This document shows positions 3,018 through 45,859 of a DNA stretch of 64,000 nucleotides, in pieces. The notes beneath the pieces are model-generated. The model was not told the origin of the DNA and made no database searches. It saw only the letters and a program-made list of their open reading frames with translations. Positions within the stretch are counted from its first letter, which is position 1. Each line of letters opens with the position of its first letter. Source of the DNA: Paludibacteraceae bacterium (GTDB taxonomy: Bacteria; Bacteroidota; Bacteroidia; Bacteroidales; Paludibacteraceae); NCBI GenBank assembly GCA_045641145.1, contig JAZUGJ010000073.1, forward strand, positions 12,846 to 76,845. Reading direction: 5' to 3'. Position numbers and translations under genes: made by a program.

Positions 3018-3062
3018 ACACTTGTACCTTAAATAAATCGACTCACAAAGGAGAGCTTAACT

Positions 3063-3416: not shown

Positions 3417-3419
3417 GCC

Positions 3420-3461
3420 GTGCGCCCCGTCCGTACAATGTATGGGCGTGTGGATTAAAAC
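3420..3461 (+). repeat. solitary type I-C-like CRISPR repeat, degenerate with an enlarged loop, sense to the operon
   Basis: GTGCGCCCC-gtccgtacaatgtat-GGGCGTGTGGATTAAAAC. The 3' 18 nt match the array repeats at 17/18. Ends 19 nt before ATG 3481. Confidence 0.6.
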
Positions 3462-3971: not shown

Positions 3972-4004
3972 GTCACACCCCACATGGGGTGCGTAGATTA
4001 AAAT
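3972..4004 (+). repeat. solitary type I-C-like CRISPR repeat, sense to the operon
   Basis: GTCACACCCCACATGGGGTGCGTAGATTAAAAT (33 nt). Near-identical to array repeat 24609-24641 read on the minus strand. Ends 20 nt before ATG 4025. Confidence 0.8.
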
Positions 4005-5088: not shown

Positions 5089-5089
5089 G

Positions 5090-5971: not shown

Positions 5972-6075
5972 AGCCCCAATATAGCGCACACAGCGGCTTG
6001 TAAGAGCGTTTTATCCAAAGGGTATACTGATATACCCAAACAGGGAAAACCTCTCACAGAGCCGCTGTGCGTTTG

Positions 6076-7080: not shown

Positions 7081-7090
7081 AGTATACCTC

Positions 7091-7492
7091 TTACTTCCTG
7101 CCGCACCCGCCGTGAGGGTCACGATAACAACAGCAAGCACACTTGTCGCTATCATCCACTTCACCGTTATCGCCGTTCACATCATACTCCAACGGCTCTG
7201 GCATCGGCATCCAAGACATCACTTCATCTGGTGATATTCCAAGACTGTATGTACCCTCGGTTTCGTGGCAACAACGGATGCAGTAGGTATATACCCCACA
7301 ACAGAATGTGTGGTCATTATCACTCTCCGCCGCCTTGAAGCCGTAAAACTTTCCGGGCATCACGATAAATTTCCCCGCCCTCTTGAGCGTGAACAAAACC
7401 CACTCATCGGACGGCGGCTGACTTTCTGTAATCAAAGTCCAAGAAAGTGTCCTTTCCCGAACCAGTTCAGATAACTCTGGCATTTGCCGCAT
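7091..7492 (-). CDS. DUF551-like phage protein with a Cys-rich insert
   Basis: 133 aa. Contains ...SWMPMPEPLE, the hallmark W-M-P-x-P-E-P of DUF551-type proteins, plus several CC/CxxC clusters. Confidence 0.5.
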   Translation of the reverse strand: MRQMPELSELVRERTLSWTLITESQPPSDEWVLFTLKRAGKFIVMPGKFYGFKAAESDNDHTFCCGVYTYCIRCCHETEGTYSLGISPDEVMSWMPMPEPLEYDVNGDNGEVDDSDKCACCCYRDPHGGCGRK

Positions 7493-7499
7493 CCCCTTT

Positions 7500-7889
7500 T
7501 TATTCTTCTTCTGTATCCGTTATGATATGGAAGTCACACTCATCTGTGTGACACAAAACAATAAACGGGCATTTATCGGGACAGGTATCCATAACTTCTT
7601 CATTATCAAAGTCCTCTGGAAACTCTGCGCCATCCTGCTCTTTCTTCTCAAGGTATTCCGTGTAGTACTCACAGCACACCTCTTGAAACATCTCTTTTGC
7701 GCACCGCAGACCGAGATAAAAGCCTCGTGCCTCTACAATATCCTCATCGTTAAGTGTATTGTTTGTATATTGTTCTAATAAAGAAAGCACCCGCCGTGCG
7801 GTTTTTTCTTCTTTGATTGTTTCAGATAGTCTACGGGAAAATTCCAATGCGGTAATTCCGTAGGCATCATCGAGATATATATATCCCAC
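7500..7889 (-). CDS. hypothetical acidic protein
   Basis: 129-aa ORF tightly packed in the operon. No recognised motif. Confidence 0.5.
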   Translation of the reverse strand: MGYIYLDDAYGITALEFSRRLSETIKEEKTARRVLSLLEQYTNNTLNDEDIVEARGFYLGLRCAKEMFQEVCCEYYTEYLEKKEQDGAEFPEDFDNEEVMDTCPDKCPFIVLCHTDECDFHIITDTEEE

Positions 7890-7891
7890 GG

Positions 7892-8107
7892 TCAGAAGTC
7901 CTCGTCAGTATAACTATCCTCTGGTATTTCGTATGCCACAGGCATCTCTTTCAGTATCTGCATGGAACGCAGAAGACCGATAGCTTTTCCGATACTTTCG
8001 GCACAGCTTTCCGCATCTTCTATGTTTTCGCTGGCATCGCAGAGATTACCAACGCATTCCTCTTTAATAGCGTCCAAGCAATCGTATAGTTCGACCATTC
8101 TACTCAT
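7892..8107 (-). CDS. hypothetical protein
   Basis: 71-aa ORF packed 2 nt from the next gene. Confidence 0.45.
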   Translation of the reverse strand: MSRMVELYDCLDAIKEECVGNLCDASENIEDAESCAESIGKAIGLLRSMQILKEMPVAYEIPEDSYTDEDF

Positions 8108-8292
8108 CGCCTTTCGTCAATAATGTCTTGTACTATGTCCAAAGCCGAGTCATAGCCAGACAACTCCCCATCTCGAATTGACGCAGTAATAAAATCGCCG
8201 TCATCGTACCTTTTCTTGATGTCCAAGTCCTCACATTGCTCGATTTCGCCCTTGATAATATCCACGAAATCATCAACATTTATCATAGGCAT
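8104..8292 (-). CDS. hypothetical small protein, tandem paralog set
   Basis: 62 aa with an ATGA overlap. Shares an overall pattern (....GY..A.D.I) with 8299-8508 and 8539-8712. Confidence 0.45.
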   Translation of the reverse strand: MPMINVDDFVDIIKGEIEQCEDLDIKKRYDDGDFITASIRDGELSGYDSALDIVQDIIDERR

Positions 8293-8298
8293 TGGCTG

Positions 8299-8508
8299 TC
8301 ACCGTCCTTTTCCTTTGTCTTTGGTGTCTATAAACTCGTTATAACCCTGTGCCTGTCGTATTGCGAGAATAGCATCGGAAATGCCACGCTCTCTCCCCAG
8401 CGCATAATAAGCATCTTCGTTGTAAGGTTTTTTTATATTATCAAAAATCTCGTGCCATTTCTCACTTAATGAAGCGACAAGCTCCTCCGCATTGATGTAT
8501 TCTTTCAT
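8299..8508 (-). CDS. hypothetical small protein, tandem paralog set
   Basis: 69-aa ORF similar in length and pattern to its neighbours. Confidence 0.45.
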   Translation of the reverse strand: MKEYINAEELVASLSEKWHEIFDNIKKPYNEDAYYALGRERGISDAILAIRQAQGYNEFIDTKDKGKGR

Positions 8509-8538
8509 ACTGACCTCCGAAATGCGGAAACAGTTCAG

Positions 8539-8712
8539 TTATTCGTTGCGAACCTCGATGGGTATCATACCCTTTATGACATCAATCGCTTTCTGGTATC
8601 CTACCATTTCAATTGCGAATAGGAATTTCCCCCCGCCGTCAACGGTATCTTTAGCATCAAGCAGTTCTTTCAAAATCAATCTAATAGCTTCTTCCTTGTC
8701 GATAAGTTCCAT
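8539..8712 (-). CDS. hypothetical small protein (57 aa, below the ORF-track cutoff)
   Basis: Hand-translated: ATG 8712 after AGGGAG gives MELIDKEEAIRLILKELLDAKDTVDGGGKFLFAIEMVGYQKAIDVIKGMIPIEVRNE, with the stop at 8539. It fills an otherwise empty gap. Confidence 0.4.
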   Translation of the reverse strand: MELIDKEEAIRLILKELLDAKDTVDGGGKFLFAIEMVGYQKAIDVIKGMIPIEVRNE

Positions 8713-8748
8713 ACAAATTCTCCCTGTTTCCAGTTCTTACACATAAGG

Positions 8749-9210
8749 TTATTTTTTGGACTTTCTTCTGTCACGGATAATCTTATTCACCATGTCCGAT
8801 GTCTTTTTCTCGGCTTCAGACTGGTTCGCCGGGGTTTGTGGTTCGGCAAAAGCGGTCTGACCTTGCTTCTTCATCTTCCCACCAAGTGGGGGCAAGGGTT
8901 TCAGACCGCCGTAGTCTTTTGGTTTTCCATTTTTTCTTTGAGCGAGTTCCTTTTTGCGAAGCCCAAGTTTCTCCGCTTCACGCTCTTTCTGATATTCTGC
9001 CATGCTGAACGGAATAGGATATTCAACTGGCATCCATGCAATCATGTGCTTACTGCTATAGATATGCCCCTTGCCGTCATTCCACGGATACGATTCGTTC
9101 TGCTGGGGGTCATATCGCATCATCCAGACCACGCCTGTCTGCTCACGGGTAACGAAATACATACCCTCTGTAGCTGGCATACGCTCATTGGTCAATGTCC
9201 ATTTAGCCAT
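8749..9210 (-). CDS. DUF551-like phage protein with a basic C-terminal tail
   Basis: N-terminal MAKWTLTNERMPATEG...IAWMPVEYPIPF fits the DUF551 pattern. Confidence 0.55.
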   Translation of the reverse strand: MAKWTLTNERMPATEGMYFVTREQTGVVWMMRYDPQQNESYPWNDGKGHIYSSKHMIAWMPVEYPIPFSMAEYQKEREAEKLGLRKKELAQRKNGKPKDYGGLKPLPPLGGKMKKQGQTAFAEPQTPANQSEAEKKTSDMVNKIIRDRRKSKK

Positions 9211-9229
9211 TCATGCAACTCCTTTCATG

Positions 9230-9559
9230 TTATTTTAGATTATAAAAGGCTTTGTACATCGCTTCTGCATTCTCAATCGTCTTGTCTTTCTCGAATGCGA
9301 TAGCGGCTTCTTCCATCCTGTACCATACCCCAGCACATCTGGTGATAAGCCCAAGGCTGTCGTTCAACTGATTGTGAGTGCGAACGATGTTGGCTCTCAA
9401 CTCATCAAAAGCCGCATCGTCAATCCCGCCTTTTCTTTTAAGGAAATATAAATTCCGCAAAGAGATGTAGGTACACAAGTTCGCCGCATCCAAGCCATCG
9501 GGTGGGTTATGGTTGTATTCCGCTTCTTCTTCATACGGGAATTTTTCAGCAACAGTCAT
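9230..9559 (-). CDS. hypothetical protein
   Basis: Start moved to ATG 9559 (MTVAEKF), which gives an ATGA overlap with the upstream stop at 9556. Confidence 0.5.
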   Translation of the reverse strand: MTVAEKFPYEEEAEYNHNPPDGLDAANLCTYISLRNLYFLKRKGGIDDAAFDELRANIVRTHNQLNDSLGLITRCAGVWYRMEEAAIAFEKDKTIENAEAMYKAFYNLK

Positions 9560-9849
9560 CTTCGTACAGCCCCTCCAGCATCTGGCGTTTTTGGTAATGG
9601 CATCCAGTACAGGATATCGAACTCGAACGGTGGTGTAGGTGTGTTGGCGAACCAACTCTCCTGCTCCCAATCATAGAACACACGGATGATAACTTCCTTG
9701 TTTCTATCCTTGTATACCCCCAAGACGAAATCACTTTTCTTTCTGTCGCTTGCACGGGGAAGATACAAAGAGGACGGAATCCACTCATTCGGGAAAGCGT
9801 TCCGCACAAATTCTGGCACAATGCTTCTTTTCAGATAATCCATTATCAA
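9556..9849 (-). CDS. DUF551-like phage protein
   Basis: 97 aa, ending ...ILYWMPLPKTPDAG. Confidence 0.5.
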   Translation of the reverse strand: MIMDYLKRSIVPEFVRNAFPNEWIPSSLYLPRASDRKKSDFVLGVYKDRNKEVIIRVFYDWEQESWFANTPTPPFEFDILYWMPLPKTPDAGGAVRR

Positions 9850-17798: not shown

Positions 17799-17830
17799 AT
17801 TTTAATCCACGCACCCCGTGCGGGTGCGAC
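17799..17830 (-). repeat. solitary type I-C-like CRISPR repeat in the 5' UTR of gene 17783
   Basis: The minus strand reads GTCGCACCCGCACGGGGTGCGTGGATTAAAAT. It lies between promoter 17871-17899 and the RBS, and ends 15 nt before the ATG. Confidence 0.85.
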
Positions 17831-17870
17831 CGTTGAAGTATTATTGATGTCATCCGCTTGGGACAAGTAT

Positions 17871-22788: not shown

Positions 22789-22821
22789 GTTTTAATCCAC
22801 ACACCCCGCACGAGGTGTGAC
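22789..22821 (-). repeat. solitary type I-C-like CRISPR repeat upstream of nrdG
   Basis: The minus strand reads GTCACACCTCGTGCGGGGTGTGTGGATTAAAAC. Ends 33 nt before the nrdG ATG, with the RBS AGGAG in between. Confidence 0.85.
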
Positions 22822-22826
22822 GCTAT

Positions 22827-22865
22827 CTAAAAAGAAAACGCTGTAGCATAGCAACTACAGCGTTT
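22827..22865 (-). terminator. intrinsic terminator between two repeats
   Basis: Minus strand: AAACGCTGTAG-8 nt loop-CTACAGCGTTT followed by TCTTTTT. Confidence 0.6.
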
Positions 22866-22901
22866 CTCCTCGTCCGCCAAAGACATTTTATCCGCATACC
22901 T

Positions 22902-22933
22902 GTTTTAATCCACGCACCCCGTTGGGGTGTGAC
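22902..22933 (-). repeat. solitary type I-C-like CRISPR repeat
   Basis: The minus strand reads GTCACACCCCAACGGGGTGCGTGGATTAAAAC. It is followed by about 35 nt and then the terminator at 22827-22865. Confidence 0.85.
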
Positions 22934-23025
22934 GACAAGGTATGCACCGTCCCACCTGCATGAAACGGCATCCCACATCCAAGAAAGAATATAACACATT
23001 CCAGACGACTTGTCAACGCCCTTTT

Positions 23026-24108: not shown

Positions 24109-24222
24109 AAAGCACCTTTTTTCAGATTGTTGATACATCGTAATCACAGCCGAAATATGTGCCACCGTCATCTCTGAATTTCACTGCAACCTGTGCATCC
24201 TGTGGCATCTTTTTCAGTTCAC

Positions 24223-24252
24223 TTTTTAATCCACTCCTGCATAAAGCGTGAC
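24223..24252 (-). repeat. decayed repeat remnant
   Basis: The minus strand reads GTCACGCTTTATGCAGGAGTGGATTAAAAA. The ends are conserved (GTCAC...GTGGATTAAAA) but the stem is lost. Confidence 0.3.
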
Positions 24253-24409
24253 CAGTTGTCTACATTTTGCGGACAACTGGTTGTTTTTTCAAAAATTGGA
24301 TAATTGGATTCTTAAAATAGTGTTTTACCTCTCGGCTTTTAACCCCAAAACTAACCGCCCCTATTACGGGACAGTAGGTGAGTCGAACACCTGTCTCTAT
24401 TTTTTAATC

Positions 24410-24775
24410 CTTTTAATTCACGCACCCACATGGGGGGACGCAAGAAGACCGCAACAGTCTTGCGACTACATTACTTTTAATCCACGCACCCCATACAGGG
24501 TGTGACCCACGATTCCGGGCGCAGAGGTTGCATTGGCGTTGATTTTTTAATCCACACACCCAGCACGGAGTGTGACTAAAGGACGTGTAACGGCTAATGT
24601 CTGCCGCCATTTTAATCCACACACCCCATGTGGGGTGTGACTTTGTTTCTGGCCGACCACCACACGGTTTCCCGATATTTTAATCCACGCACCCCACGCA
24701 GGGTGCGACTATCGGACGCACCTACTACCCAACCAAGACGAGGTTTTAATCCACACATCCCGTGTGGGATGCGAC
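24410..24775 (-). CRISPR. CRISPR array with type I-C-like repeats: 6 repeats, 5 spacers
   Basis: Repeats lie at 24743-24775, 24677-24709, 24609-24641, 24544-24576, 24474-24506 and 24410-24442, the last being degenerate. Spacers are 33, 35, 32, 37 and 31 nt. The minus-strand repeat reads GTCGCAYCCC..GGG.TG.GTGGATTAAAAY. The degenerate repeat is distal to the cas8c-like gene. Confidence 0.9.
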
Positions 24776-24922
24776 AGCAAACATCAACAAAGCGGGTAGC
24801 ATTGTTTCCCTGTGATTACTGCATGATGCACAGATTTTGCCGAGGGAACGGTCACAATTTACGGTTTCTGTGCGAGAACCGCCGAAAGGTGTAATTTTTC
24901 TTGTGCGAACCTACTGGAGTTT

Positions 24923-26362
24923 TTATGCACACTTGGGGTTCGCATCGAGAACATCCGTGCCGTATCTGTCGTAATTGTACTTACGGAGAACGGCGCAAGC
25001 GACAAACATCATATGCTCACGGACGCTTGTTTTGTCGTAGTCAATCGTGCCGAACTTTGCGAGATTGTGCTGAAGAGCGTTGACCACATCGAACGGGATA
25101 GTACCGCCGTTGACCATAGCACTCATAAGGCGGATGAACACTCGGTTCGTTGCGTGTTTATCGACAACAAACGAGCCGTCCCGATAAGTGCCGTAGGCGT
25201 ACTTTATGATGTCGCTGATGGACGGGGAATCGAAAGTGGTAACATATGTTTCCTTTTTCTTATCCCACACCGCACGATACCAACTGCACTTCTCTTTCCA
25301 GTCACAGACTTTCTTTAAGAAGTCGTATTTCGGAGTTTCAGCGAGGGCGATGATAGAGTCTCTGCCAGTGTTTGCTCTGTAGGAAATGTAGGTCACATTG
25401 TCCTCAATCGTGTTGCGGCGGCAACCGTTAAGGATTTCCCCCAGTTCCCGTCTGTAGTCGGGGAGCGTAGCGCAATGGCTTTCCACAAACTCGCCGGGCA
25501 GACCGATGTTGATGTGTTCGCCGTTGTAGTCCCAAACAAGGGTAACGACATCGTCATAAGTCTTTGCGTAGTTGGTTACTGCCCACTTCAGCAGATTAGC
25601 TGACTTGGATACCGCAACAACGCCAAAGGCGGCATCATCGGCGTTAGGGACACGCATATTGAGCTTTTTGGTAGACTCATTCGAGAACATCGACACGAAA
25701 GAGGGATATTCTCCGTTTTTCGGAAAACCATCGGATGCGATATCCAGTTCCCCAGTGACCTCACAGATGGTCATACGGGATGCAGGGTCGTTTTCGAGCA
25801 GATTTCTGTAATACCGCTCATACACCCGCATAAAGTCCCTATCTTTGTGGGGAAGCGTGTTGCCGATTCTCCAACGGACTAACGACTTGTCGTTGTACAG
25901 TTTGACAGTGTTGCCATCCTTTACCGTGTGAAGTGCGGTAACACCGTCAAGGTCGGAGAGACAAGTGCCGCCCATGACATACTTGTATACCGCATCAACA
26001 ATGGGCGTGGTATATTCCGAATCGTGCCATGCGGAAAGTTTTCCGATATAATCCGCATGGTGAGCAGTTCCCATATCAGCGACACAACGCAACTGGTCTG
26101 CAAAGCCCTTGGCACACACATTACTGGTAACTCGTTCAGAATCACAGGTACAAGGCACGATTGTGTACCTGTCCCAGTTGCCTCTGACATCGGGGACGTG
26201 GACAGCGTTCACAAAATGCCCATCCCAGTCGATTTCGATTTCCAGACTTGCGTGAACCGTAGCGTGGTACACAGGGGCAAGCGGCGACATACCATCGTAG
26301 TACTCGCCGACAATGGATTCCAACTTGTCATAGGAACGGACTGCCTTGCCGATGATGTCCAT
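24923..26362 (-). CDS. cas8c: Cas8c (Csd1)-like large subunit lacking the C-terminal small-subunit domain
   Basis: Start at ATG 26362 after AAAGGAAG. 479 aa. The layout follows Csd1: MDIIGKAVRSYDKL, RYTIVPCTCDSERVTSNV, SFVSMFSNES..NADDAAFGVVAVSKSANLL, NVTYISYRANTGRDSI, RLMSAMVNGGTIPFDVV, ACAVLRKYNYDRYGTDVLDAN-stop. Similarity was judged from the remembered family consensus. Confidence 0.65.
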   Translation of the reverse strand: MDIIGKAVRSYDKLESIVGEYYDGMSPLAPVYHATVHASLEIEIDWDGHFVNAVHVPDVRGNWDRYTIVPCTCDSERVTSNVCAKGFADQLRCVADMGTAHHADYIGKLSAWHDSEYTTPIVDAVYKYVMGGTCLSDLDGVTALHTVKDGNTVKLYNDKSLVRWRIGNTLPHKDRDFMRVYERYYRNLLENDPASRMTICEVTGELDIASDGFPKNGEYPSFVSMFSNESTKKLNMRVPNADDAAFGVVAVSKSANLLKWAVTNYAKTYDDVVTLVWDYNGEHINIGLPGEFVESHCATLPDYRRELGEILNGCRRNTIEDNVTYISYRANTGRDSIIALAETPKYDFLKKVCDWKEKCSWYRAVWDKKKETYVTTFDSPSISDIIKYAYGTYRDGSFVVDKHATNRVFIRLMSAMVNGGTIPFDVVNALQHNLAKFGTIDYDKTSVREHMMFVACAVLRKYNYDRYGTDVLDANPKCA

Positions 26363-26366
26363 GCAG

Positions 26367-26618
26367 TCACTTCCTTTCGCAGTCCAGCCCAAGGGCACGG
26401 AGTTCGTCCACCACGGAGTTATATCCGTCACGCCACTCGGAAGTGGGGATGTCAGCCGCAGAATAGCCGTTTGCGTTTGCGGTGAACAGTGCGTCCATAA
26501 GGATGTTTCCCGCAAGAGCAACCACATCCTCATCCTGTACGCCATAGGTCAGCTTCATGACCGCAAGTACCCGTCCTACTTGATACGAGTTACGGGCGAT
26601 ACGCTCTTTTTCTGTCAT
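26367..26618 (-). CDS. small protein, possible detached Cas11c-like small subunit
   Basis: ATG 26618 after AAAGGAG. 83 aa. It lies 4 nt upstream of the cas8c-like start. The N-terminus ...ARNSYQVGRVLAVMKL resembles the AYxLGRLFAxLE segment that opens the Cas11-like C-terminal domain of canonical Cas8c. Confidence 0.35.
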   Translation of the reverse strand: MTEKERIARNSYQVGRVLAVMKLTYGVQDEDVVALAGNILMDALFTANANGYSAADIPTSEWRDGYNSVVDELRALGLDCERK

Positions 26619-26671
26619 TGTTATTCTCCTTTCATTGTCGGAACACTCGGCACAACGCCTTGTTCTCTTAA

Positions 26672-26700
26672 AGTATACCACCGCCAAAGTGTTGTGTCAA
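26672..26700 (-). promoter_or_regulatory. sigma70-type promoter with extended -10 for the cas operon
   Basis: Minus strand: TTGACA-17 nt-(TGG)TATACT, with an A/T-rich tract upstream. Confidence 0.65.
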
Positions 26701-26720: not shown

Positions 26721-27062
26721 TTATTCTGCCACTCTGTAGCTTGTAGCGAGCATATCAATGATTTCGGCAAGGCAATCAATCTGCCCATCCGACATACGCC
26801 CGATAGTAGCAAGGATGCGGACACGCTTTTCCTTTGTGGACTCTCTGCGGAAACTGACCTCGGTCTTTTCATCCTCGGCAAAGTAATCCATGCCGATGCC
26901 GATAAACTCGCAGTACTTTGCAAGGGTGTTGTAACTGGGGTTGCGTTTGCCGTTTTCCAGAAGCGAGATGCCGTTCTGGTGGATACCAAGTTCCCTCATG
27001 ATATCGTACTGGGAAAGCCCTCTGTCGATGCGCAGTTTACGCAGTTTCTCGTTCACGGTCAT
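26721..27062 (-). CDS. XRE-family HTH transcriptional regulator
   Basis: MTVNEKLRKLRIDRGLSQYDIMRELGIHQNGISLLENGKRNPSYNTLAKY is a canonical Cro/CI-type HTH. Confidence 0.8.
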   Translation of the reverse strand: MTVNEKLRKLRIDRGLSQYDIMRELGIHQNGISLLENGKRNPSYNTLAKYCEFIGIGMDYFAEDEKTEVSFRRESTKEKRVRILATIGRMSDGQIDCLAEIIDMLATSYRVAE

Positions 27063-27403
27063 CAGCAGTCACCTCTCTCGATTAAATCAGACGGGCTTTC
27101 CACCTTGTCCTCGCACAGAGTAACCATCTCGAAATCCTCGATGGGCAGGTTGACTTCCTTTTTCAGCTTGCCAGAGAAGCCGTCCAAGTTGAATTCTTTC
27201 TCGATAACGGTGGTTACATAGTTGTCGGGAAACCGCTTGTACCATCCCAGAAAATCGTCATTGGTTATTACGCTTCTGATGGCGGCTAAAACATCTGGGG
27301 TAACGGCATAAAACGGAGAGGTATGGTTGCCGCCGCAGACAGGGGTGCGGACAAGGTATAAATCCTTGTATTCCTTGTGGCGGAAAAACTTGAGTGGCTT
27401 CAT
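27062..27403 (-). CDS. hypothetical protein
   Basis: 113-aa ORF that overlaps both flanking genes by 1 nt. Confidence 0.5.
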   Translation of the reverse strand: MKPLKFFRHKEYKDLYLVRTPVCGGNHTSPFYAVTPDVLAAIRSVITNDDFLGWYKRFPDNYVTTVIEKEFNLDGFSGKLKKEVNLPIEDFEMVTLCEDKVESPSDLIERGDC

Positions 27404-27906
27404 CAGCGGTCACCCCCCACGATAAACGGCTCGCCGCCCTTTCTGCGGATGCGGTAGTCCACCTCGACAAGGAAGTGGATGGGACTGGCAGGGACTGTTG
27501 CGCCGTGCAGGTCGGTGAAGTCATCGTCCATGTAGGCGAGGATGTCCTTGCAGTCGGCTTCGTCCAGAACGGACATACCGTCCAAGAGCTTGCCGAAGCG
27601 GAAAGCCTCTGGGTTCACCACCTCGTAAGAGGCGGCGTTGATGGCGTAGCAAGCCATGAAGAAAACCTTTTCCTTGTTCATAGTATCATTCTCCTTTTTA
27701 GTTTCGGGCATCTCTCTGTTGTACTCTTCGGGTATCTTTCTGTCCCAACACTCTTTGCAGTATAAGCCGCCTAACCAACACAGAGCGAAGTCACAATCGT
27801 GAAACTGCTCGTACCTGTAAATATGGGGACAGGCGAAACATCCACCCACATATTTATCATCCACATACTCTGGGCGTTCCCGTTTCAGTTTTTCTCTAAA
27901 GGTCAT
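27403..27906 (-). CDS. Cys-rich MTFREKLK-family protein, copy D, fused to an extra C-terminal domain
   Basis: Start at ATG 27906 (MTFREKLKRERPEYV...GGCFACP...CKECWDRKIPEE). The reading frame continues about 90 aa further. An internal start at MNKEK is possible. Confidence 0.5.
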   Translation of the reverse strand: MTFREKLKRERPEYVDDKYVGGCFACPHIYRYEQFHDCDFALCWLGGLYCKECWDRKIPEEYNREMPETKKENDTMNKEKVFFMACYAINAASYEVVNPEAFRFGKLLDGMSVLDEADCKDILAYMDDDFTDLHGATVPASPIHFLVEVDYRIRRKGGEPFIVGGDR

Positions 27907-28124
27907 TTCTTTTCCCCTGCCTTTTCGGGCATCTCTCTGTCCCAACATTCTTTACACTTTATCCCAATTGACCAACACATGATGCAGTCGTGTGTGCAAT
28001 TAGGAAGTGTCAGCGGTGCGGAAGACTCGTATCCGTAATCATGCGGGCATAAGTTGCATCCACCCACATATTTACTGCCAACGCACTCTGGGTGTTCCTG
28101 CTTCAGCTTCTCTCTAAAGGTCAT
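27903..28124 (-). CDS. Cys-rich MTFREKLK-family protein, copy C
   Basis: ATG 28124 with an ATGA overlap. MTFREKLKQEHPECV..GGCNLCP..CKECWDREMPE. Confidence 0.55.
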   Translation of the reverse strand: MTFREKLKQEHPECVGSKYVGGCNLCPHDYGYESSAPLTLPNCTHDCIMCWSIGIKCKECWDREMPEKAGEKK

Positions 28125-28333
28125 CTTCTGGCATCCTCTTCTGGCACTTCCCTGTCCCAACAAGCTCTGCACAGCAACCCATCGTTGATTCCGTAATCCC
28201 CTTTCACATCAAGGCAGTGCGCAGGGTAATCAGCCTCGAAACCAAAGGTGACGGGACAGCCGTAGCACCCGCCCATGAACTCGTCACCGACCTCTGCGGG
28301 ATACTTCAGCTTCAGTTTTTCTCTAAAGGTCAT
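28121..28333 (-). CDS. Cys-rich MTFREKLK-family protein, copy B
   Basis: MTFREKLKLKYPAEV..GGCYGCP..CRACWDREVPE. Confidence 0.55.
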   Translation of the reverse strand: MTFREKLKLKYPAEVGDEFMGGCYGCPVTFGFEADYPAHCLDVKGDYGINDGLLCRACWDREVPEEDARR

Positions 28334-28785
28334 TCTTTTTCCCCCTTGTATGGTTCAGGCATCGGCATCCATGCCATACCGTCCACGATTTCACCGTAGC
28401 TCTCAAGGTAACACATACTACCGTCCATTCCAAAAACATCTGACGAAACAAACCCGTTATAGGAAACGAGAATCTCCTGACCGTCATCGGGGAGCTTGCC
28501 GTCAATAATCTCACGGGCTTCGTTCAGTTCCCGCTCCTCATAAGAAGAAGCTTCCCACTCTTCATCGGTCATCTTTCTTATGCGCCACACGTTCCACCCC
28601 ATTACGGTTGGAGCGGCTTCCAGAGCCTTTTCTGCGGCTTCGATGCCGTAGTCTTCCGGGTCTTCCCATACCCATTTGCCAAGTCCGTAGCAGGTTTCTG
28701 CACAGTACATATTGGCTTCATAGTCACCACGCCCATGTAAGGCAACCAGTGCCTCCTTGAGAGCATCTGCATCAATTAGTCTCAT
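28330..28785 (-). CDS. DUF551-like phage protein
   Basis: Start at ATG 28785 (MRLIDADALKEAL). The C-terminus is GMAWMPMPEPYKGE. Confidence 0.5.
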   Translation of the reverse strand: MRLIDADALKEALVALHGRGDYEANMYCAETCYGLGKWVWEDPEDYGIEAAEKALEAAPTVMGWNVWRIRKMTDEEWEASSYEERELNEAREIIDGKLPDDGQEILVSYNGFVSSDVFGMDGSMCYLESYGEIVDGMAWMPMPEPYKGEKE

Positions 28786-28969
28786 CGTCATCCCCCTTTT
28801 CGGGCATCTCCCTGCTCCAGCATTCATGACAGGTGATTGCGTCATTGTCGCATTCGGTGGGTCTTGCGGCTTCGTATCCGAAAACACTCGGACAGCTAAG
28901 ACAGCCACCTCCGAAAACATCGCCAACATATTGAGGATGTTCCTTTGCGAGTCGTTCTCTAAATGTCAT
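28772..28969 (-). CDS. Cys-rich MTFREKLK-family protein, copy A
   Basis: ATG 28969 after GAGGGAG. MTFRERLAKEHPQYV..GGCLSCP..CHECWSREMPE. Confidence 0.55.
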   Translation of the reverse strand: MTFRERLAKEHPQYVGDVFGGGCLSCPSVFGYEAARPTECDNDAITCHECWSREMPEKGDDDETN

Positions 28970-29027
28970 AACACTCCCTCTTACATTCCGGGCATCCATC
29001 AGATGCACTTTTCGTTGCCTGTGCTAT

Positions 29028-29125: not shown

Positions 29126-29153
29126 TTGACACATAGAAAAGAAGTGCTATAAT
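29126..29153 (+). promoter_or_regulatory. sigma70-type promoter with extended -10 driving a solitary repeat
   Basis: TTGACA (29126-29131), 16 nt, TGCTATAAT (-10 at 29148-29153). The repeat starts about 13 nt after the predicted TSS. Confidence 0.7.
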
Positions 29154-29172
29154 GTATGTATACCAGTTAAAG

Positions 29173-29204
29173 GTCGCATCCCATGCTGGTGCGTGGATTA
29201 ATAT
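29173..29204 (+). repeat. solitary type I-C-like repeat, plus orientation, with a variant 3' end
   Basis: GTCGCATCCCATGCTGGTGCGTGGATTAATAT. No credible ORF lies downstream, and the terminator at 29257-29300 follows. Confidence 0.75.
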
Positions 29205-29405: not shown

Positions 29406-29438
29406 CTTTTAATCCACACATCCCGTGTGGGATGTGAC
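29406..29438 (-). repeat. solitary type I-C-like CRISPR repeat
   Basis: The minus strand reads GTCACATCCCACACGGGATGTGTGGATTAAAAG. It differs from the leader-proximal array repeat (24743-24775) at 2 positions. Confidence 0.85.
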
Positions 29439-33658: not shown

Positions 33659-33691
33659 GTCGCACCCCGCATAGGGTGCGTGGATTAAAAC
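33659..33691 (+). repeat. solitary type I-C-like CRISPR repeat, plus orientation
   Basis: GTCGCACCCCGCATAGGGTGCGTGGATTAAAAC. A full-consensus repeat about 32 nt after the predicted TSS. Confidence 0.9.
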
Positions 33692-33699
33692 TGTGAGCC

Positions 33700-33724
33700 T
33701 TGTGCGGGGCGTGTGGCTTAAAAG
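33700..33724 (+). repeat. partial second repeat (3' half only)
   Basis: TTGTGCGGGGCGTGTGGCTTAAAAG lies 8 nt after the full repeat and resembles ...GGGTGCGTGGATTAAAAC. Confidence 0.4.
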
Positions 33725-40654: not shown

Positions 40655-43600
40655 TCAGAACACCACGCTCATTGTATTCAAATCGCTTCCGTTCTTATAG
40701 AAGAACAGGCACTTATACGGCTTGCCCTTTTCGTTAAGTGCAGGCTCAAGACCGTACAAATCGCCAGCCTGTCCTTGTGCGCCGCCGAGCAGAACATCTG
40801 TATGACGGCGTTCAGCAAATTTAACAGGACGCAGTATTTTCAATCTGTAGTTTATCTCGTTGCTCTTGTTCTTGTACTTCTCCCACACATAGTAGTAAGT
40901 ACCAGTTGAGCAAGTCCACTTGGATGCGTAGATACCCGTTGCGGACTGGATGTTCCAATCACAGGTAGCATAGATTTCCTCATCGGTGGTTGCAATGCCG
41001 CTTGAGTTCTCCAGTCCTGTGATGATGGCAAAAACTGGCATCAGCTTACCGAACTCAAGGGTTGTTCCAGAGGATTTGTTTGCATCTGGTGCTTTACTAT
41101 ACAGGGTACTGCCAGACACGCCGTTCTGAACCTTTCCAGCCCCGTCATAGACATTATCAAAAGTAAATTGTCCATAGTATCCAGAAGCGGAAGTAGCAGA
41201 GGAGCTTATAACGCCGAGGGACTTCAGTTCACGGAATGCGCTATCGGTCATCAAACGGTAGTCCGTGGACACCTCTACCGAGGACTCGGCATTGTTATGC
41301 ACATCGCCAACATACGATGTGCCAGAAAGCGGAGTTGCGCTTCCGTTCCACTTGAACGCCTGTATCTGGGTTATATCAGCGATGTCGTTTCCGATAACGC
41401 CGTTAAAGTACTCCTTTACCTTTGCCTCAAGTATAGCATCGGTAAGGCTATAGCCATACGAACCGACAAGTGTCTGCACGGATTTGTTCAGACCGCCATT
41501 ACCATTCGCACCATAGATAGCGGTGTTGAGAGCGGCAATCTTGTCTTGAAGTTCCTTGTCGTCAAACTTTATCTCGTCCGCATTCGTTATGTATCCGTTC
41601 TCCAAGAGGAAAGCAGAAACCTGTGCCATAGTAGCATAGCCGCCAGTAGAAGAATGGGCAGGGGACGCATCAGACCAGTCACTCCATCTGGACGCATCAT
41701 CCGCACGGTTGTAATAGTACAGTCTTGTATAGACATCGCCGTATGCGGTATACAGGCTCTGGCTGATATACTCTGCGCTTCCTACATTACCGATTGCGGT
41801 ATTGACAATGCGCACAGAACCAGAAGCGGTTATATTTGTCGGCAACCTTTCCGCAAGCAGGGTAGTGTATCCTTTCTCTTTTCGGATAAAAGTGCCTGTG
41901 AGTCGGAAACTGTTCAAGTCGAAGTTCGTTACCTTTTTATCCTCTGTTGCCCCAGATACGAAGTCGAGGTTCACACCGCCGTTCAGCATCGCCACATTGA
42001 CAGAACCCTTTGTGAGGTCGCCACCATAGGAGTCGTGCATAGCCGTTCCGTTGTATCCAACGCTGATACCGTGCGGGGCTTTGATAATGGAGCTATCGGT
42101 GAAGTCGTACTTGTAAGTGCCGAGGTTCTTATAAGTCCATCTTACCCCTGCTTTCTGCAAGTCCATCACTATCTGGCTCAATTGCTGTTTCGTATAGTAG
42201 GTCGCCGCATCGAGGTAATCGTCACCCGCCGCTGTCTTTGCCCCTGCATTGGTAGTGGCGGCAGTTACGCCGTACCAATCCTTACTGTAAGTATACGGAG
42301 TGTTCGCTGGCACTTTATCCACCACCACATCACGGAGACCAGAGTCGTTACTCGCATCCCCTGTAGTATACGCCTCTACATAAGTGGCAAAGTGCATAGC
42401 GGTTGCAAACTCGCTTGCCGCACCCAGCGCAAGGGAATTGTTCAGAACGCCGCCGTACAATCCGAGGTTTCTTATCGTGAAGTGCGGGTTCTCGTGGATA
42501 ACCTTACCGCCATAGCACAGTCTGCGGATATAGTCGCCGTACAGAGCGTTCATCGTAACCGTTGTGTTCTGTGCGGAGTTGCATCTTACTATATCGCTAT
42601 AGCCTGTCATTCGGCATCCAGATATATTGACAATGGCGTTGTTGCCCAGAACCGTCACGAAGTGCTTGATTTCCGTATACAACAGGTTGTTGCTGTTGTC
42701 AAGTCCTGTTTGCTTATTGTACCGATACAGTACCTTTCCAACTTCTCCGACATCCGTACCAGCCAGTTCCGCTCCCGACAGTTCTGCTTCTTTATCCTCT
42801 GGCTCATCGAAGTTTTTCTCCTCAGAAGAGTTCTCTGGTATCTCCACAGAACCGTCCATTTCGGGCAGATTATCATGGTTTTGAGTCTCATCCACACCAC
42901 TATATGTAGTGTCCTCAGAACTCTCGTTACCAGATGTAGATGTAAAGGAAGAATACTTTACACCGTAAAACTTGATGTCTTTGAAATTCAGAACAGAGTA
43001 CAAATTGTCCCATTTTATGGACAGTTCAGTTTCTCCGCACTTGCAAGAAGCGTATGTTGCGCTCTTGTAGGTAACGGTGAAAGTCTTACCTTTGTATGCC
43101 CCTACCTTACCGATAGCGACTCTGTACGGCTTCTCTCCGCTCGACAGGGTATGGTTAAGTGCATCTTTCAAGTTACTGTACTTGGTCACGACACCGCCAT
43201 CGTCTATCTGGCAGTACTCGGCGAAGTTCAGTTCGTAGTTGGTTCTGCGGAATGATAATCCAGCATCGCTAACGGTAGTGGCTTTATACTCATCGTAATC
43301 GTCACTTCCGTTCGTATGCACGGTATCGGCTATACAGTTCTGGATATCGACCACGGCGTTATCACGAACGGAGATGTTACTTGCAGAGGATGAATGGATT
43401 GCGGCTTTAGAAAGCCAGAAACCAGCGATACGGATTGTTTCATTCGGGTATACAGAAATGTGTGTCTGGATACGGTACAGTTTAATCCAATTTACCCAAT
43501 CGGCATTATACTTACCTGTTGCGGTTTGAGAGGGAGTGCCTTTGCGGTATATGTGTTCGGAAACGATATTTATCCGCTTTCCGAAACCGTAAGAGGATAT

Positions 43601-45859
43601 AAACTCGCTACTTGTTGTGGTTTTCGTTACCGCCCAATTGTCATTATTCTGAACCAGACCTGTATTAACCCGCTTGGAGTAACCGAAGTAGTTGTGTTGC
43701 AGGTAATTGCCTGTTCCGTTTTTAGCACGGCACTTGACCACGATATACGGTTCTGCGGCTGATATGGTATCCTTATGCCCGCCGAGGTAAGTTACCGCAT
43801 CGGAAATCCGTCTGAACGGTCTCCAGTAAGTACCATCACGCACAAGGGTATTATCAAGAGCTTTGCTTTCGTCTGGTTCTCCGAAGTCCACGAACAGAAC
43901 GAAGCGATTGTGCGGGTACGCTCTCTTGATAGGAGTTATATCCAAGTCGCTTCTTTTGCGGAAAAGCACCCCGCCGACACTAATGTATTTGACGGGCTTG
44001 TTATAAGCAAGCTGTGTAGGTGTATTCCCGTAGAACTCCAAGTCGGTTGCGAACGCTTTTGTGGAGTTGTTTATTCCGCAACAGACCACGATTTCTTTTG
44101 GTTTGATGTGGTACGCCCATTGCGGCATCGTAAGGGACTGGTCTTTATACTGCCAGTTTGCATCATGATGGTTATGCTTATACAGGTCTATTCCCGCAGG
44201 AACAAGCCCTGTACGCATGATATGCTCTTGAGCGGAGCGGGAAATATCGCCAGAAAAGAACACGGTCTTTCCCATGTGGTTTGCCAGCAGACACATGGAG
44301 TAGTCATTTTCAATATAACGGGTAGAGTAGCTTGATGAGCCTTTGCTGGCGAAGTCGTCTACCTCTTCCTGTATCTGCATAAGGTCTACATAGTATCTCG
44401 CTCTCTCTGTACGGTATATCTCCGCACTTCCAGAACTTACCAAATCATACAGATGGTTGAAGTCCTTGGTGTACTGGACATCGTTCTCGAAAAGTTTTTC
44501 TTGGGTACAAATCTCGTATCTATAGCCGTAGTAATCATTTGGAGCGTTGTATCTGCGCTTGTAGACATAGATATACTTCTTTGTGCCGTTATCGTCCACA
44601 GCGGCTATAACGGCTCTCTGCGGCGGTCTGGAAGTGCAATTCACGAAAGTGATTGAAAATTCATCCTCGCAGTAGGTCTTATCCGCAGTATCTTTCGGAG
44701 TTGAGGTAACATACTCCAAATCGTATGCCGTTTCGCCGTCCTTTTCCGTTTTGGTCAGAACGAGTTTATCGCCCTCGGACGGGAATGTGATATTTGCGAA
44801 CAGTTTGTTTGGAGTCATCGTCTTGGAGTATTCGAGAACGATACTATTCTCGTTATCCGTTTCCGGGGAACGGGATGCTCCGAACAGGTCGTTCTCCACT
44901 TCGTTTTCAAAGCGGGTAACAACGCTGTACACATCTGAAGTTTCTCTGTATGCTTCCAGTTCACTTTGCAAGGCGGGAGTTATATCCTTACCGTTATAGG
45001 TTGTCGCATTGACTCCCTTGCCGTAATAAGACGCTGGTGCGAATTCGATAGCGGACTTGTCGATAACGCCACAAGCGTCCATCCAGTCCATAAAGGTTAC
45101 TATGCCGCCGTAACGCATTCCGCTCCCAGATGGGCTTGTCGCTCCATTGGGATAATGCCCGATACAGGGTGAGCCATAAGGAAGATAGACTTTTGTATCC
45201 TTTGTGATAAGGCGGGTAGATGTCTTGGATGTTGATAATGGGAACACCAGCTTTGCTTTCCCGTCCACGGTACACTCGTAGTAACCGCCTACATTGGATG
45301 GGATAGCAGAGGGTTTCGTGATGAACAAGCCCTCGTAGACCGTTTTCCCGTTTGTACAGACAACACCGTTCTCGTATATCTTGTGGTAAACCGCAAGTCC
45401 GCCGTAATGGTCTTTGTGCCAATGGGAAATCGCTATGATATCGACATGGGTTATCTCATTCTCTGTCAGATTTTTCCAAAGCTGATAGGCATACTCGACA
45501 CCGCCGTTGTTGCCGATATCGACAAGGATAGTCTTACCGTACACTTTGATAGCAAGGCATTCTGTCGCTGAACCAGCAGTGGTTGCCTGTGCATTGAAAA
45601 TGTACTCCACCTTTTCGGTGATGGGCTTCAGACGCTCCTCAATGTTCTTATCGAACTCCTGTATCTTACCCTCTATGTCGCCCATCAGAGTGGTAAGGTA
45701 GTCTTTCGTGCCGTCAATCACAACGCCCTGTAGGTCGGACATCGCCATCCGCTTTACTTTGTTTACACCATCTTCTGGGTGTACTGCTACAACCGAAGTT
45801 TCAGCGGTAACTTCGGCTTGCTTTATTTTCGGTACTTCTGGGAGTTTAATCAAACTCAT
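40655..45859 (-). CDS. giant (1734 aa) virion fibre/tailspike-like protein with an N-terminal metallo-beta-lactamase-fold domain
   Basis: TILVDIGNNGG...DIIAISHWHKDHYGG (HxHxDH) and the later LYKHNHHDANW. The central region looks like a beta-helix. A C-terminal knob-like domain is present (DLNSFRLTGTF...RWSDW). Confidence 0.65.
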   Translation of the reverse strand: MSLIKLPEVPKIKQAEVTAETSVVAVHPEDGVNKVKRMAMSDLQGVVIDGTKDYLTTLMGDIEGKIQEFDKNIEERLKPITEKVEYIFNAQATTAGSATECLAIKVYGKTILVDIGNNGGVEYAYQLWKNLTENEITHVDIIAISHWHKDHYGGLAVYHKIYENGVVCTNGKTVYEGLFITKPSAIPSNVGGYYECTVDGKAKLVFPLSTSKTSTRLITKDTKVYLPYGSPCIGHYPNGATSPSGSGMRYGGIVTFMDWMDACGVIDKSAIEFAPASYYGKGVNATTYNGKDITPALQSELEAYRETSDVYSVVTRFENEVENDLFGASRSPETDNENSIVLEYSKTMTPNKLFANITFPSEGDKLVLTKTEKDGETAYDLEYVTSTPKDTADKTYCEDEFSITFVNCTSRPPQRAVIAAVDDNGTKKYIYVYKRRYNAPNDYYGYRYEICTQEKLFENDVQYTKDFNHLYDLVSSGSAEIYRTERARYYVDLMQIQEEVDDFASKGSSSYSTRYIENDYSMCLLANHMGKTVFFSGDISRSAQEHIMRTGLVPAGIDLYKHNHHDANWQYKDQSLTMPQWAYHIKPKEIVVCCGINNSTKAFATDLEFYGNTPTQLAYNKPVKYISVGGVLFRKRSDLDITPIKRAYPHNRFVLFVDFGEPDESKALDNTLVRDGTYWRPFRRISDAVTYLGGHKDTISAAEPYIVVKCRAKNGTGNYLQHNYFGYSKRVNTGLVQNNDNWAVTKTTTSSEFISSYGFGKRINIVSEHIYRKGTPSQTATGKYNADWVNWIKLYRIQTHISVYPNETIRIAGFWLSKAAIHSSSASNISVRDNAVVDIQNCIADTVHTNGSDDYDEYKATTVSDAGLSFRRTNYELNFAEYCQIDDGGVVTKYSNLKDALNHTLSSGEKPYRVAIGKVGAYKGKTFTVTYKSATYASCKCGETELSIKWDNLYSVLNFKDIKFYGVKYSSFTSTSGNESSEDTTYSGVDETQNHDNLPEMDGSVEIPENSSEEKNFDEPEDKEAELSGAELAGTDVGEVGKVLYRYNKQTGLDNSNNLLYTEIKHFVTVLGNNAIVNISGCRMTGYSDIVRCNSAQNTTVTMNALYGDYIRRLCYGGKVIHENPHFTIRNLGLYGGVLNNSLALGAASEFATAMHFATYVEAYTTGDASNDSGLRDVVVDKVPANTPYTYSKDWYGVTAATTNAGAKTAAGDDYLDAATYYTKQQLSQIVMDLQKAGVRWTYKNLGTYKYDFTDSSIIKAPHGISVGYNGTAMHDSYGGDLTKGSVNVAMLNGGVNLDFVSGATEDKKVTNFDLNSFRLTGTFIRKEKGYTTLLAERLPTNITASGSVRIVNTAIGNVGSAEYISQSLYTAYGDVYTRLYYYNRADDASRWSDWSDASPAHSSTGGYATMAQVSAFLLENGYITNADEIKFDDKELQDKIAALNTAIYGANGNGGLNKSVQTLVGSYGYSLTDAILEAKVKEYFNGVIGNDIADITQIQAFKWNGSATPLSGTSYVGDVHNNAESSVEVSTDYRLMTDSAFRELKSLGVISSSATSASGYYGQFTFDNVYDGAGKVQNGVSGSTLYSKAPDANKSSGTTLEFGKLMPVFAIITGLENSSGIATTDEEIYATCDWNIQSATGIYASKWTCSTGTYYYVWEKYKNKSNEINYRLKILRPVKFAERRHTDVLLGGAQGQAGDLYGLEPALNEKGKPYKCLFFYKNGSDLNTMSVVF

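Follow-up and report, generated by a model that had tools for sequence, protein, structure and literature searches.

The subject of this analysis is a 64-kb stretch of a 134,566-bp NCBI contig (JAZUGJ010000073.1, positions 12,846 to 76,845 of the forward strand; assembly GCA_045641145.1, Paludibacteraceae bacterium), hereafter called the window; all window-level negative results reported below cover these 64 kb. On its minus strand, the window carries a locus derived from a type I-C CRISPR system, in which a gene for the N-terminal part of the large subunit Cas8c (cas8cN) lies between a small gene (orf83) and a CRISPR array. The window is phage-like, with genes for a baseplate wedge, tail fiber, endolysin, ThyX, dCTP deaminase, NrdG-like protein, RecD2/Dda-like helicase, and nucleotide kinase. 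The baseplate, tail fiber, endolysin, and nucleotide metabolism genes bear out an earlier proposal, made by a model from the letters alone (the sequence-only reading), that the locus is phage borne. For comparison there was L001, a relative with 97% identity; it is a Logan contig of 5.7 kb that breaks off within cas8cN. The locus consists of the following features.

26672..26700, minus strand: sigma-70-type promoter TTGACA-17-TATACT with an extended -10 TG, matching 11 of 12 consensus positions and conserved in L001
26367..26618, minus strand: ORF83, an open reading frame (ORF) of 83 amino acids (aa) with an AAAGGAG ribosome-binding site (RBS)
24923..26362, minus strand: cas8c-NTD (N-terminal domain; cas8cN), a 479-aa ORF that begins after a 4-nt gap and whose own RBS overlaps the end of ORF83
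24776..24922, minus strand: leader-like gap of 147 nt in which neither a promoter nor a terminator was detected
24410..24775, minus strand: array of six 33-nt I-C-type repeats and five spacers
24775-24743, 24709-24677, 24641-24609, 24576-24544, 24506-24474, and 24442-24410, minus strand: array repeats R1 to R6, respectively
24354..24375, minus strand: terminator-like hairpin after the array, closing the unit

Judged by this layout, one strong promoter drives a unit that runs from orf83 through cas8c-NTD and the six-repeat array to the terminator. As the 147-nt gap holds no promoter or terminator signal, the array is probably cotranscribed with orf83 and cas8cN. The coordinates that the sequence-only reading had given for the promoter, both ORFs, the two gaps, and the six repeats with five spacers were all correct. 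Longer readings of the two ORFs (540 aa and 106 aa) were rejected, as family alignments and the gene calls in L001 begin at the shorter ATGs; the Cas8c family alignment begins at M1 of the 479-aa ORF.

The array repeats are heterogeneous, and their assignment to the I-C class held. Compared with the I-C pattern GTCGC.CCC....GGG.GCGTGGATTGAAAY, they have an 8-bp hairpin and an 11-nt tail (UGGAUUAAAAN) that contains ATTAAAA and not ATTGAAA. The spacers measure 33, 35, 32, 37, and 31 nt, compared with 33 to 37 nt in canonical arrays. The distal repeat, R6, is the most degenerate, as had also been proposed, with 22 to 26 of 33 positions in common with the other array repeats.

Profile and fold comparisons place the 479-aa protein in the Cas8c family as a divergent member. 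It matched Pfam Cas_Csd1 (PF09709) at 2.8e-30 over profile positions 4 to 435 of 559 (106 bits against a gathering threshold of 27) and four PADLOC Cas8c models, the best at 3.2e-41 over positions 3 to 414 of 525; with the NCBIfam equivalog TIGR01863 it scored 53.2 bits, under the cutoff of 218.65. A HMMER scan of 1.84 billion representatives returned 806 homologs, essentially all of them Cas8c proteins of ~600 aa, with query residues 1 to 470 aligning to homolog residues 1 to ~465 at up to 32% identity. An AlphaFold2 model had a predicted local distance difference test score (pLDDT) of 77 overall and above 85 for most of the N-terminal part. In a Foldseek search of the PDB with this model, the top ten matches were I-C Cas8c chains (including 8dfs_I, 8dej_I, and 8g9t_K), with a probability of 1.0 and E values from 5e-15 to 1.5e-11. 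The sequence-only reading had named this ORF a Cas8c/Csd1 protein, and both lines of evidence agree. A phmmer search of the PDB with the single Cas8cN sequence gave no match, a word-indexed protein search returned Cas8cN itself alone, no viral structure in BFVD resembled the model, and scans of IMG/VR and the JGI metagenomes found no close relative.

Canonical I-C Cascade comprises Cas5c, seven Cas7c, Cas8c, and two Cas11c subunits produced by internal translation of cas8c (10.1101/2022.06.15.496202). Every profile and all of the ~600-aa homologs run ~110 to 130 residues past the end of the 479-aa protein. The Cas8c family profile also matched solved I-C large subunits, and Cas11c (7kha_K, 124 aa) fell at profile positions 468 to 589. 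The window protein ends in ...VLDANPKCA where canonical Cas8c runs on into DRSYQYGRLLAVLEK, and the C-terminal helical domain, which corresponds to Cas11c and contains its internal translation start, is absent. Consequently, no internal Cas11c would be made from the window cas8c. A location of the missing domain in another downstream frame was rejected, as the stop codon and the first repeat are just 147 nt apart. According to the profile alignments and the predicted fold, the protein is thus a Cas8c whose end falls precisely on the linker leading to the C-terminal/Cas11c domain, which bears out the truncation at ...VLDAN proposed earlier.

At 72 positions, 42 relatives show conservation of at least 85%, and Cas8cN departs from the family residue at 27 of these, with clusters of changes in two loops, S..R..HPLCD and GNAKLIS.ND...FTYRGRF. 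By profile alignment, these two loops fall in the region of two functional elements of Desulfovibrio (D. vulgaris) Cas8c, the loop with N72 that contacts the protospacer-adjacent motif (PAM) and the Q212 wedge (10.1101/2022.06.15.496202); the second substituted stretch, residues 223 to 238, was modeled with a pLDDT below 50. The loop divergence hints at altered or lost DNA engagement by Cas8cN. Across the first 133 codons of cas8cN, the ratio of nonsynonymous to synonymous polymorphism (pN/pS) relative to L001 was ~0.11.

ORF83 carries RNSYQVGRVLAVMK at residues 9 to 22, matching the DRSYQYGRLLAVLEK of canonical Cas8c. A hidden Markov model built from 99 Cas8c C-terminal domains ranked ORF83 at the top of 1,207 six-frame segments of the window (E value of 0.032, 10.6 bits; next segment, 2.2), and hhalign aligned it to the C-terminal domain with a local probability of 89% (E value of 2.3e-6) over 44 columns that span the first two helices only. 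Residues 3 to 50 are the sole part aligning to Cas11c, and the protein is 83 aa long compared with ~124 aa for Cas11c. In an alignment of 39 full-length Cas8c proteins with a joined sequence, ORF83 following the 479-aa protein, the ORF83 residues S11, G15, A19, Y52, and G77 fell on invariant columns, and ~40 central residues of the Cas8c C-terminal domain had no counterpart. ORF83 matched nothing in Pfam, NCBIfam, PADLOC, or PHROGs. AlphaFold2 predicted three helices at low confidence (pLDDT of 57.7 alone and 35 to 62 in a fusion model), and a fold search with this low-confidence model gave no meaningful match. Matches to "TALE" proteins were rejected as a repeat-summing artifact contributing ~3 bits per stretch.

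Beyond itself, ORF83 had one 92%-identical match in the word-indexed protein search, in L001, with a pN/pS of ~0.31. We consider ORF83 a real gene, and the profile and motif matches make it quite probable that it derives from the Cas8c C-terminal/Cas11c module. The sequence-only reading had taken it for the detached small-subunit module, moved in front of the large subunit. That proposal has moderate support for the first ~45 residues, which are probably homologous (the hhalign match); the alignment reaches the first two helices only, and the structural models are of low confidence. Likewise, the truncated large subunit and the reversed gene order largely uphold the split and permuted Cas8c, with moderate support for its ORF83 half. 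As orf83 and cas8cN are both under purifying selection relative to L001, the locus is not a dead remnant.

Other cas genes were sought in two ways. PADLOC, run on the 79 ORFs of the window, gave Cas8c as the only cas family among the best 25 of 42 families, a search that covers cas2 too. In addition, the 1,207 six-frame segments were searched by phmmer --max with proteins of the Lachnospiraceae I-C locus L096 (the C-terminal part of Cas3, Cas5c, Cas7c, Cas4, and Cas1) and with Cas5c, Cas7c, and Cas11 from the mobile locus L085 (see below). The best E values in the window were 0.7 for Cas5c and 0.3 for Cas7c, and nothing fell below 0.3 except Cas8c against the 479-aa ORF; no cas3, cas4, or cas1 was found by phmmer or among the best 25 PADLOC families. 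The earlier statement that the 64 kb hold no cas5, cas7, cas3, or adaptation gene was thereby confirmed. Its companion, that the Cas8c-derived genes are the only cas genes, holds within the window and does not extend to the whole phage, as the window is 64 of the 134.6 kb of the contig. Like canonical I-C systems, the locus has the (predicted) Cas8c N-terminal fold, the repeat hairpin, the 11-nt tail, and an array oriented with the degenerate repeat at the distal end. Unlike them, it has a large subunit without the C-terminal domain, one that misses the TIGR01863 equivalog cutoff widely, and the window lacks Cas5c, Cas7c, Cas3, and Cas1/2/4.

Nine further copies of the repeat and one decayed copy, which the sequence-only reading had overlooked, lie outside the array on both strands. 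The 17-nt repeat tail GGGTGYGTGGATTAAAA occurs 15 times in the window with up to 2 mismatches, compared with 0.06 times in shuffled sequences. The solitary repeat units (SRUs) are as follows.

3429..3461, plus strand: intercistronic SRU whose stem is divergent, 19 nt before ATG 3481
3972..4004, plus strand: intercistronic SRU U3972, identical to R3 at 31 of 33 positions, 20 nt upstream of ATG 4025
17799..17831, minus strand: SRU U17831, preceded by a consensus-like promoter and followed by the RBS/ATG (17783) of a 151-aa gene
22789..22821, minus strand: SRU ending 33 nt upstream of the start (22755) of the NrdG-like gene
22902..22934, minus strand: SRU with a promoter (23016-22988) before it and a terminator-like hairpin (22866-22835) after it
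24222..24256, minus strand: decayed copy (GGTCACGC...GAGTGGATTAAAAAG) upstream of an 84-aa zinc-finger-like ORF
29172..29204, plus strand: SRU with a promoter matching 12 of 12 consensus positions (29126-29153) before it and a bidirectional terminator after it
29406..29438, minus strand: SRU U29438, identical to R1 at 31 of 33 positions, in place of the central part of an 87-aa gene, which L001 has intact
33659-33691 and 33692-33724, plus strand: SRU U33659 and an abutting degenerate copy with no spacer between them, a promoter upstream, and a strong terminator downstream

All copies lie in sense orientation to local transcription, in two settings. At 29172, 33659, and 22934 the repeat forms part of a promoter-repeat-terminator cassette, and the stretch 33659..33724 looks like a small-RNA cassette. 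Four other SRUs end 15 to 33 nt before the start codons at 3481, 4025, 17783, and 22755. In the 15 units taken together, 89% of the cells of the 8-bp stem are paired; there are G-C/A-U as well as C-G/U-A exchanges, and covariation is modest. Three paralogous genes of ~120 to 160 aa (~3060-3417 and 3481-3954 on the plus strand and 17783-17328 on the minus strand) have similar N termini (MY[LF].N...) and a C terminus that ends in ..[EK][FY]C[GD]G, and the second and third of them have a solitary repeat 15 to 19 nt before the start codon. The two arms of an 8-nt inverted repeat, GCATACCT ... AGGTATGC (22832-22980, minus strand), flank the SRU at 22934-22902 and, in the predicted fold, close around its hairpin; the other repeat copies showed nothing equivalent.

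Comparison with L001 bears on the age of two SRUs. L001 lacks those at 29438 and 29172 and has in their places an intact 87-aa membrane protein gene and an intact 100-aa gene. In the window, the SRU at 29438 takes the place of ~130 nt of the 87-aa gene, and the SRU at 29172 replaces the RBS and 5' half of the 100-aa gene, with the gene's promoter and the shared terminator kept. The solitary repeats are, from this comparison, recent and dynamic, and, at the two replaced genes at least, they have come to be expressed from strong phage promoters. That two SRUs replaced genes yet kept the promoter or terminator of those genes suggests recent selection for expression of the repeat.

Every repeat in the window ends in GGATTAAAA(N), whereas uniform cellular I-C arrays with the same stem, in loci fetched from 185,579 species representatives, all end in GGATTGAAA(Y); in cellular arrays, ATTAAAA occurred only as a sporadic mutated repeat. 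Position -5 of the handle is A in the window repeats, compared with G in every cellular I-C array retrieved. The best cellular repeats retrieved (L096/L100, Lachnospiraceae metagenome-assembled genomes) are identical to R2, U17831, and U33659 at 30 of 33 positions, and such repeats in rumen and gut Lachnospiraceae/Clostridia genomes are a weak pointer to the host. A scan of the genome collection with the 17-nt tail gave 94 hits, roughly the chance expectation; it was used only through the loci fetched, and the host was not identified from it.

Heterogeneous, uniformly ATTAAAA arrays were found on mobile elements, namely, several IMG/VR contigs (L002 to L012) and L085/L099. The contigs L109/L110 (IMGVR_UViG_3300029731_000265 and IMGVR_UViG_2833242432_000002) carry a full-length cas8c in the unusual order cas7c-cas5c-cas8c (locus 6012-9806); this module has no cas3 or adaptation genes, adjoins genes for topoisomerase III and single-stranded-DNA-binding protein, and is accompanied by heterogeneous ATTAAAA arrays (L010/L007) several kb from the cas genes. 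L085/L099 (DWYN01000023.1) is an 11.6-kb contig binned to "Candidatus (Ca.) Blautia excrementipullorum," with cas5c, a cas8c broken by a 562-aa TnpB/Cas12f-like (IS605-type) insertion, and cas7c in this order, heterogeneous ATTAAAA repeats upstream, and no cas3 or adaptation gene. The phage-like L117 (ENA ERZ28654647 scaffold_1606, 5272-9084) encodes Cas5c, a 481-aa Cas8c-NTD, a 142-aa Cas11c, and Cas7c, beside a three-repeat mini-array with the ordinary handle. In L014 (ENA ERZ24911439 NODE_2994, 4141-6219), an orphan 481-aa Cas8c-NTD follows a 202-aa protein with a C-terminal helix-turn-helix (HTH) domain in a prophage-like chromosomal region, with holin, amidase, and YomF_N genes nearby and no I-C repeats. 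The length of this NTD is conserved in five of six cluster members (480 aa in the other), on contigs of up to 977 kb. The window Cas8cN is 32% identical to cellular Cas8c and ~26% identical to Cas8c of mobile elements.

On this survey, mobile elements of gut Clostridia often carry I-C derivatives without Cas3. A cas8c split at the linker is not unique to the window, because L117 has an NTD/cas11c pair in the normal order; what sets the window apart is not the split but the permutation and the absence of cas5 and cas7 from it. By the same comparison, the ATTAAAA handle is the mark of a lineage of mobile elements, and it can occur together with Cascade genes encoded by the element itself. A second repeat class, CTCCGCATAAAGGATACCGGCTGTGGATTAAAAC, is scattered between genes on L003 to L010 and L109 (e.g., at 7151-7184, between cas7c and cas5c). 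It shares only the 11-nt I-C-like tail, and its scatter mirrors the solitary repeats of the window.

The sequence-only reading had proposed database searches with the five spacers, and these returned no phage, plasmid, or related-virus target. No match was found for the five spacers in the window (up to 8 substitutions), in INPHARED and PLSDB (blastn, 11-nt words), or in the 117 fetched loci, nor for S1 to S4 in IMG/VR (exact 22-nt seeds) or for S1 in the JGI metagenomes (exact 24-nt seed). As exact seeds were required, diverged protospacers would escape the collection scans, and the absence of protospacers is suggestive but not conclusive.

Each ingredient of the locus has a precedent in the literature. 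The viral proteins AcrIB3 (a Cas5 homolog) and AcrIB4 (homologous to the final 90 residues of Cas8b) become part of Cascades that are defective, and the same study catalogued hundreds of orphan viral cas genes, with about two dozen cas8c in its Table S3, many from Lachnospiraceae phages (Katz et al., 10.1101/2023.06.24.545427). As with AcrIB3 and AcrIB4, the window has virus-encoded homologs of Cascade subunits outside a complete cas operon with an HTH gene adjacent, and ORF83, like AcrIB4, is a small protein matching the C-terminal, small-subunit-like domain of the large subunit. Unlike those cases, the window has both halves of Cas8c as two genes in reversed order, belongs to type I-C and not I-B, and has a cotranscribed array; hits with nearby arrays were dropped from the published screen (10.1101/2023.06.24.545427). 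Solitary repeat units also act as RNA anti-CRISPRs (Racr), among them RacrIF1 and RacrIC1, the validated I-C one lying beside acrIC5 (Camara-Wilpert et al., PMC10651486). The repeat hairpins of the window are likewise intergenic in a phage, several right behind a promoter, and stand beside candidate protein anti-CRISPRs. They differ in number (nine copies, a decayed one, and a six-repeat array in 64 kb), in that several lie in 5' untranslated regions (UTRs) rather than standing alone, in the A for G at handle position -5 relative to the cellular arrays retrieved, and in that two arose by gene replacement.

Mini-arrays carried by viruses are directed at other viruses or at the promoters of host cas genes (PMC8616872; Shmakov et al., 10.1101/2023.03.03.530964). 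The window shares with them a cas-poor viral array whose repeats are of the host's CRISPR type. However, mini-arrays have one or two spacers, most of them with a target, while the window has five spacers for which no target was found, heterogeneous repeats, and Cas8c-derived genes alongside. L117, L109/L110, and L085 are like the window in that mobile elements of gut Clostridia carry both I-C-derived genes and arrays; L117 shares the split of cas8c at the same linker, and L109/L110 and L085 share the ATTAAAA handle and heterogeneous repeats. In contrast to the window, which has neither cas5c nor cas7c and an 83-aa Cas11-like gene placed upstream, these modules retain cas5c and cas7c together with a Cas11c or C-terminal domain of full size, all in the usual order. 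What is new here is the combination, the permuted split, the cotranscription with an array, the density and recent spread of the SRUs, and the handle variant.

These features could form a combined protein-plus-RNA anti-CRISPR arsenal against type I-C, whether the opposing system is chromosomal or on a resident mobile element. We favor this explanation tentatively, giving it slightly less than an even chance; the scattered SRUs shift the weight toward an anti-CRISPR role. The anatomy, homologies, purifying selection, and repeat turnover are observed, and the binding and inhibition steps are proposed by analogy. The repeat hairpins with their 11-nt tail would be bound, and perhaps cut, by the cell's Cas5c, and the bound repeats would nucleate Cas7c on phage RNA and so titrate the building blocks of Cascade, as for RNA anti-CRISPRs including RacrIC1. 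The Cas8c fragment may keep the fold that docks on the Cas5c/Cas7c foot while lacking the C-terminal domain and having diverged in conserved loops. Together with ORF83, acting as a shortened Cas11c, it would displace the cell's Cas8c and Cas11c, leaving complexes unable to lock the R-loop or recruit Cas3, a step modeled on AcrIB3 and AcrIB4. The adjacent XRE-family gene could encode an anti-CRISPR-associated (Aca)-type regulator. If proteins and repeats do act together, this would be the first phage to combine decoy subunits from both Cas8c halves, an expressed array, and genome-wide repeat RNAs.

Several observations weigh against such an arsenal. Truncation alone is no proof of a defect, as the cas8c-NTD and cas11c between cas5c and cas7c in L117 may function, and the ORF83 models are of low confidence. 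The A at handle position -5 departs from every cellular array retrieved, and a mimic might be expected to lie closer to its target than the 30 of 33 positions of the best cellular repeats. It is not obvious why a pure decoy would need unique spacers with lengths canonical for I-C, Cas7 loading at SRUs 15 to 33 nt before start codons would seemingly harm the phage itself, and cas5 and cas7 could lie in the remaining 70 kb of the contig.

The main rival is a hijack of host Cas5 and Cas7, which we consider unlikely. Here, phage CRISPR RNAs (crRNAs), a PAM-reading Cas8c fragment, and a mini small subunit would be mounted on host Cas5c/Cas7c (with host Cas11c/Cas3) and directed against competing phages, resident elements, or host DNA, with the variant handle and the phage Cas8c separating phage-programmed from host-programmed complexes. 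Unique spacers of 31 to 37 nt, the canonical I-C length, would fit this role, as would the cotranscription of the array with two cas-derived genes, the predicted intact Cas8c fold under purifying selection, and the occurrence of split NTD/Cas11c in apparently working modules (L117). The G-to-A handle is common to arrays on elements encoding cas7c-cas5c-cas8c (L109/L110) and so is compatible with Cascade formation, and viral mini-arrays targeting other viruses provide a precedent. However, no protospacer was found in any collection scanned, the heterogeneous repeats and the absence of adaptation genes from the window imply a spacer set that is not renewable, the conserved loops around the PAM/wedge region are degenerate, and the nine spacerless SRUs sit poorly with a guide role. 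A hybrid complex is quite unlikely in the form in which the phage Cas8c fragment and mini-Cas11c cap host Cas5c/Cas7c filaments on phage crRNAs marked by A(-5), the SRUs drain the pool available to host crRNAs, and host I-C is turned against host genes or rival elements, whether or not Cas3 takes part. If true, it would mean that the virus has retained just those parts of a CRISPR effector that determine specificity and takes the others from its host.

It is also quite unlikely that the phage has a complete Cas3-less I-C Cascade of its own, with cas5c and cas7c outside the window, as a dispersed version of the L109/L110, L117, and L085 modules that serves crRNA-guided silencing or interelement competition. 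The window is only 64 of 134.6 kb, and the relatives with ATTAAAA repeats carry cas7c-cas5c-cas8c or cas5c-cas8c-cas7c without cas3 or adaptation genes; should cas5c and cas7c lie elsewhere on the contig, the locus would be one more Cas3-less mobile I-C system. Yet the genes are contiguous in all those elements, whereas here the flanking 24 kb and 37 kb contain nothing cas-like, the Cas8c lacks its C-terminal domain, the Cas11-like gene is shrunken and misplaced, and the window Cas8c is nearer to cellular than to mobile-element Cas8c. The repeats may instead serve phage gene expression, host Cas5c or another RNase cutting 5' UTR and intercistronic hairpins to mature or stabilize mRNA or to set expression, with the Cas8c fragment and ORF83 modulating this interaction. 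The four SRUs shortly before start codons, always in sense, and the tail-bearing repeats between genes such as cas7c and cas5c in L109/L110 are what such a role would leave; as no precedent was found, three SRUs lie in cassettes without a gene, and L001 manages without two SRUs, we regard it as very unlikely. Finally, a functionless, decaying remnant of a once complete phage-borne I-C system would account for the heterogeneous repeats, the degenerate terminal repeat, the missing cas genes, and the divergent conserved motifs. It is extremely unlikely in view of intact ORFs with RBSs, a near-consensus promoter, pN/pS values below 1 relative to L001, a hairpin preserved by compensatory changes, and repeat copies that have recently been spreading and not decaying.

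The locus also offers natural experiments on how far a crRNA handle may change and yet stay recognized and on the origin of solitary repeats, with two genes replaced within ~3% divergence. On the practical side, its products are candidate inhibitors or retargeting parts for type I-C editors.

The surroundings of the locus include the following genes.

26721..27062, minus strand: XRE-family HTH regulator of 113 aa (Pfam HTH_3, 3.6e-13; HTH_19, 1e-11), ending just before the promoter
27948-27403, 28172-27903, 28333-28121, and 29008-28772, minus strand: Cys-rich paralogs of 181, 89, 70, and 78 aa, respectively

The XRE regulator had been placed directly upstream of the unit by the sequence-only reading, and the HTH_3 match agrees; its pN/pS relative to L001 is ~0.03, and its product is a candidate Aca-like regulator. 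Directly upstream of it, the four small Cys-rich ORFs stand in tandem (27403-29008). All four start MTFRE[KR]L...P..V......GGC..CP...[YF]E, and they may represent a diversifying anti-defense or zinc-binding family. A "Lar-like" gene had been proposed downstream of the array; this identity was rejected, as Pfam gave no Lar match and the two small downstream ORFs matched only zinc-finger/DUF6980 families, weakly.

INPHARED held no relative of the locus (as DNA or protein), of a 25-kb structural block, or of a 1,734-aa protein, and gave only short tail protein matches for a 407-aa window protein; by these searches, no deposited phage is closely related to this one. Neither the Rfam scan nor the tRNA scan of the window gave a hit. 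The 79 scanned ORFs also include genes for a MazF/PemK-like toxin, an ADP-ribosylglycohydrolase, and a leucine-rich-repeat protein of the BspA type, and two giant ORFs encode proteins of 1,734 aa (40655-45859) and 1,681 aa (54576-59621).

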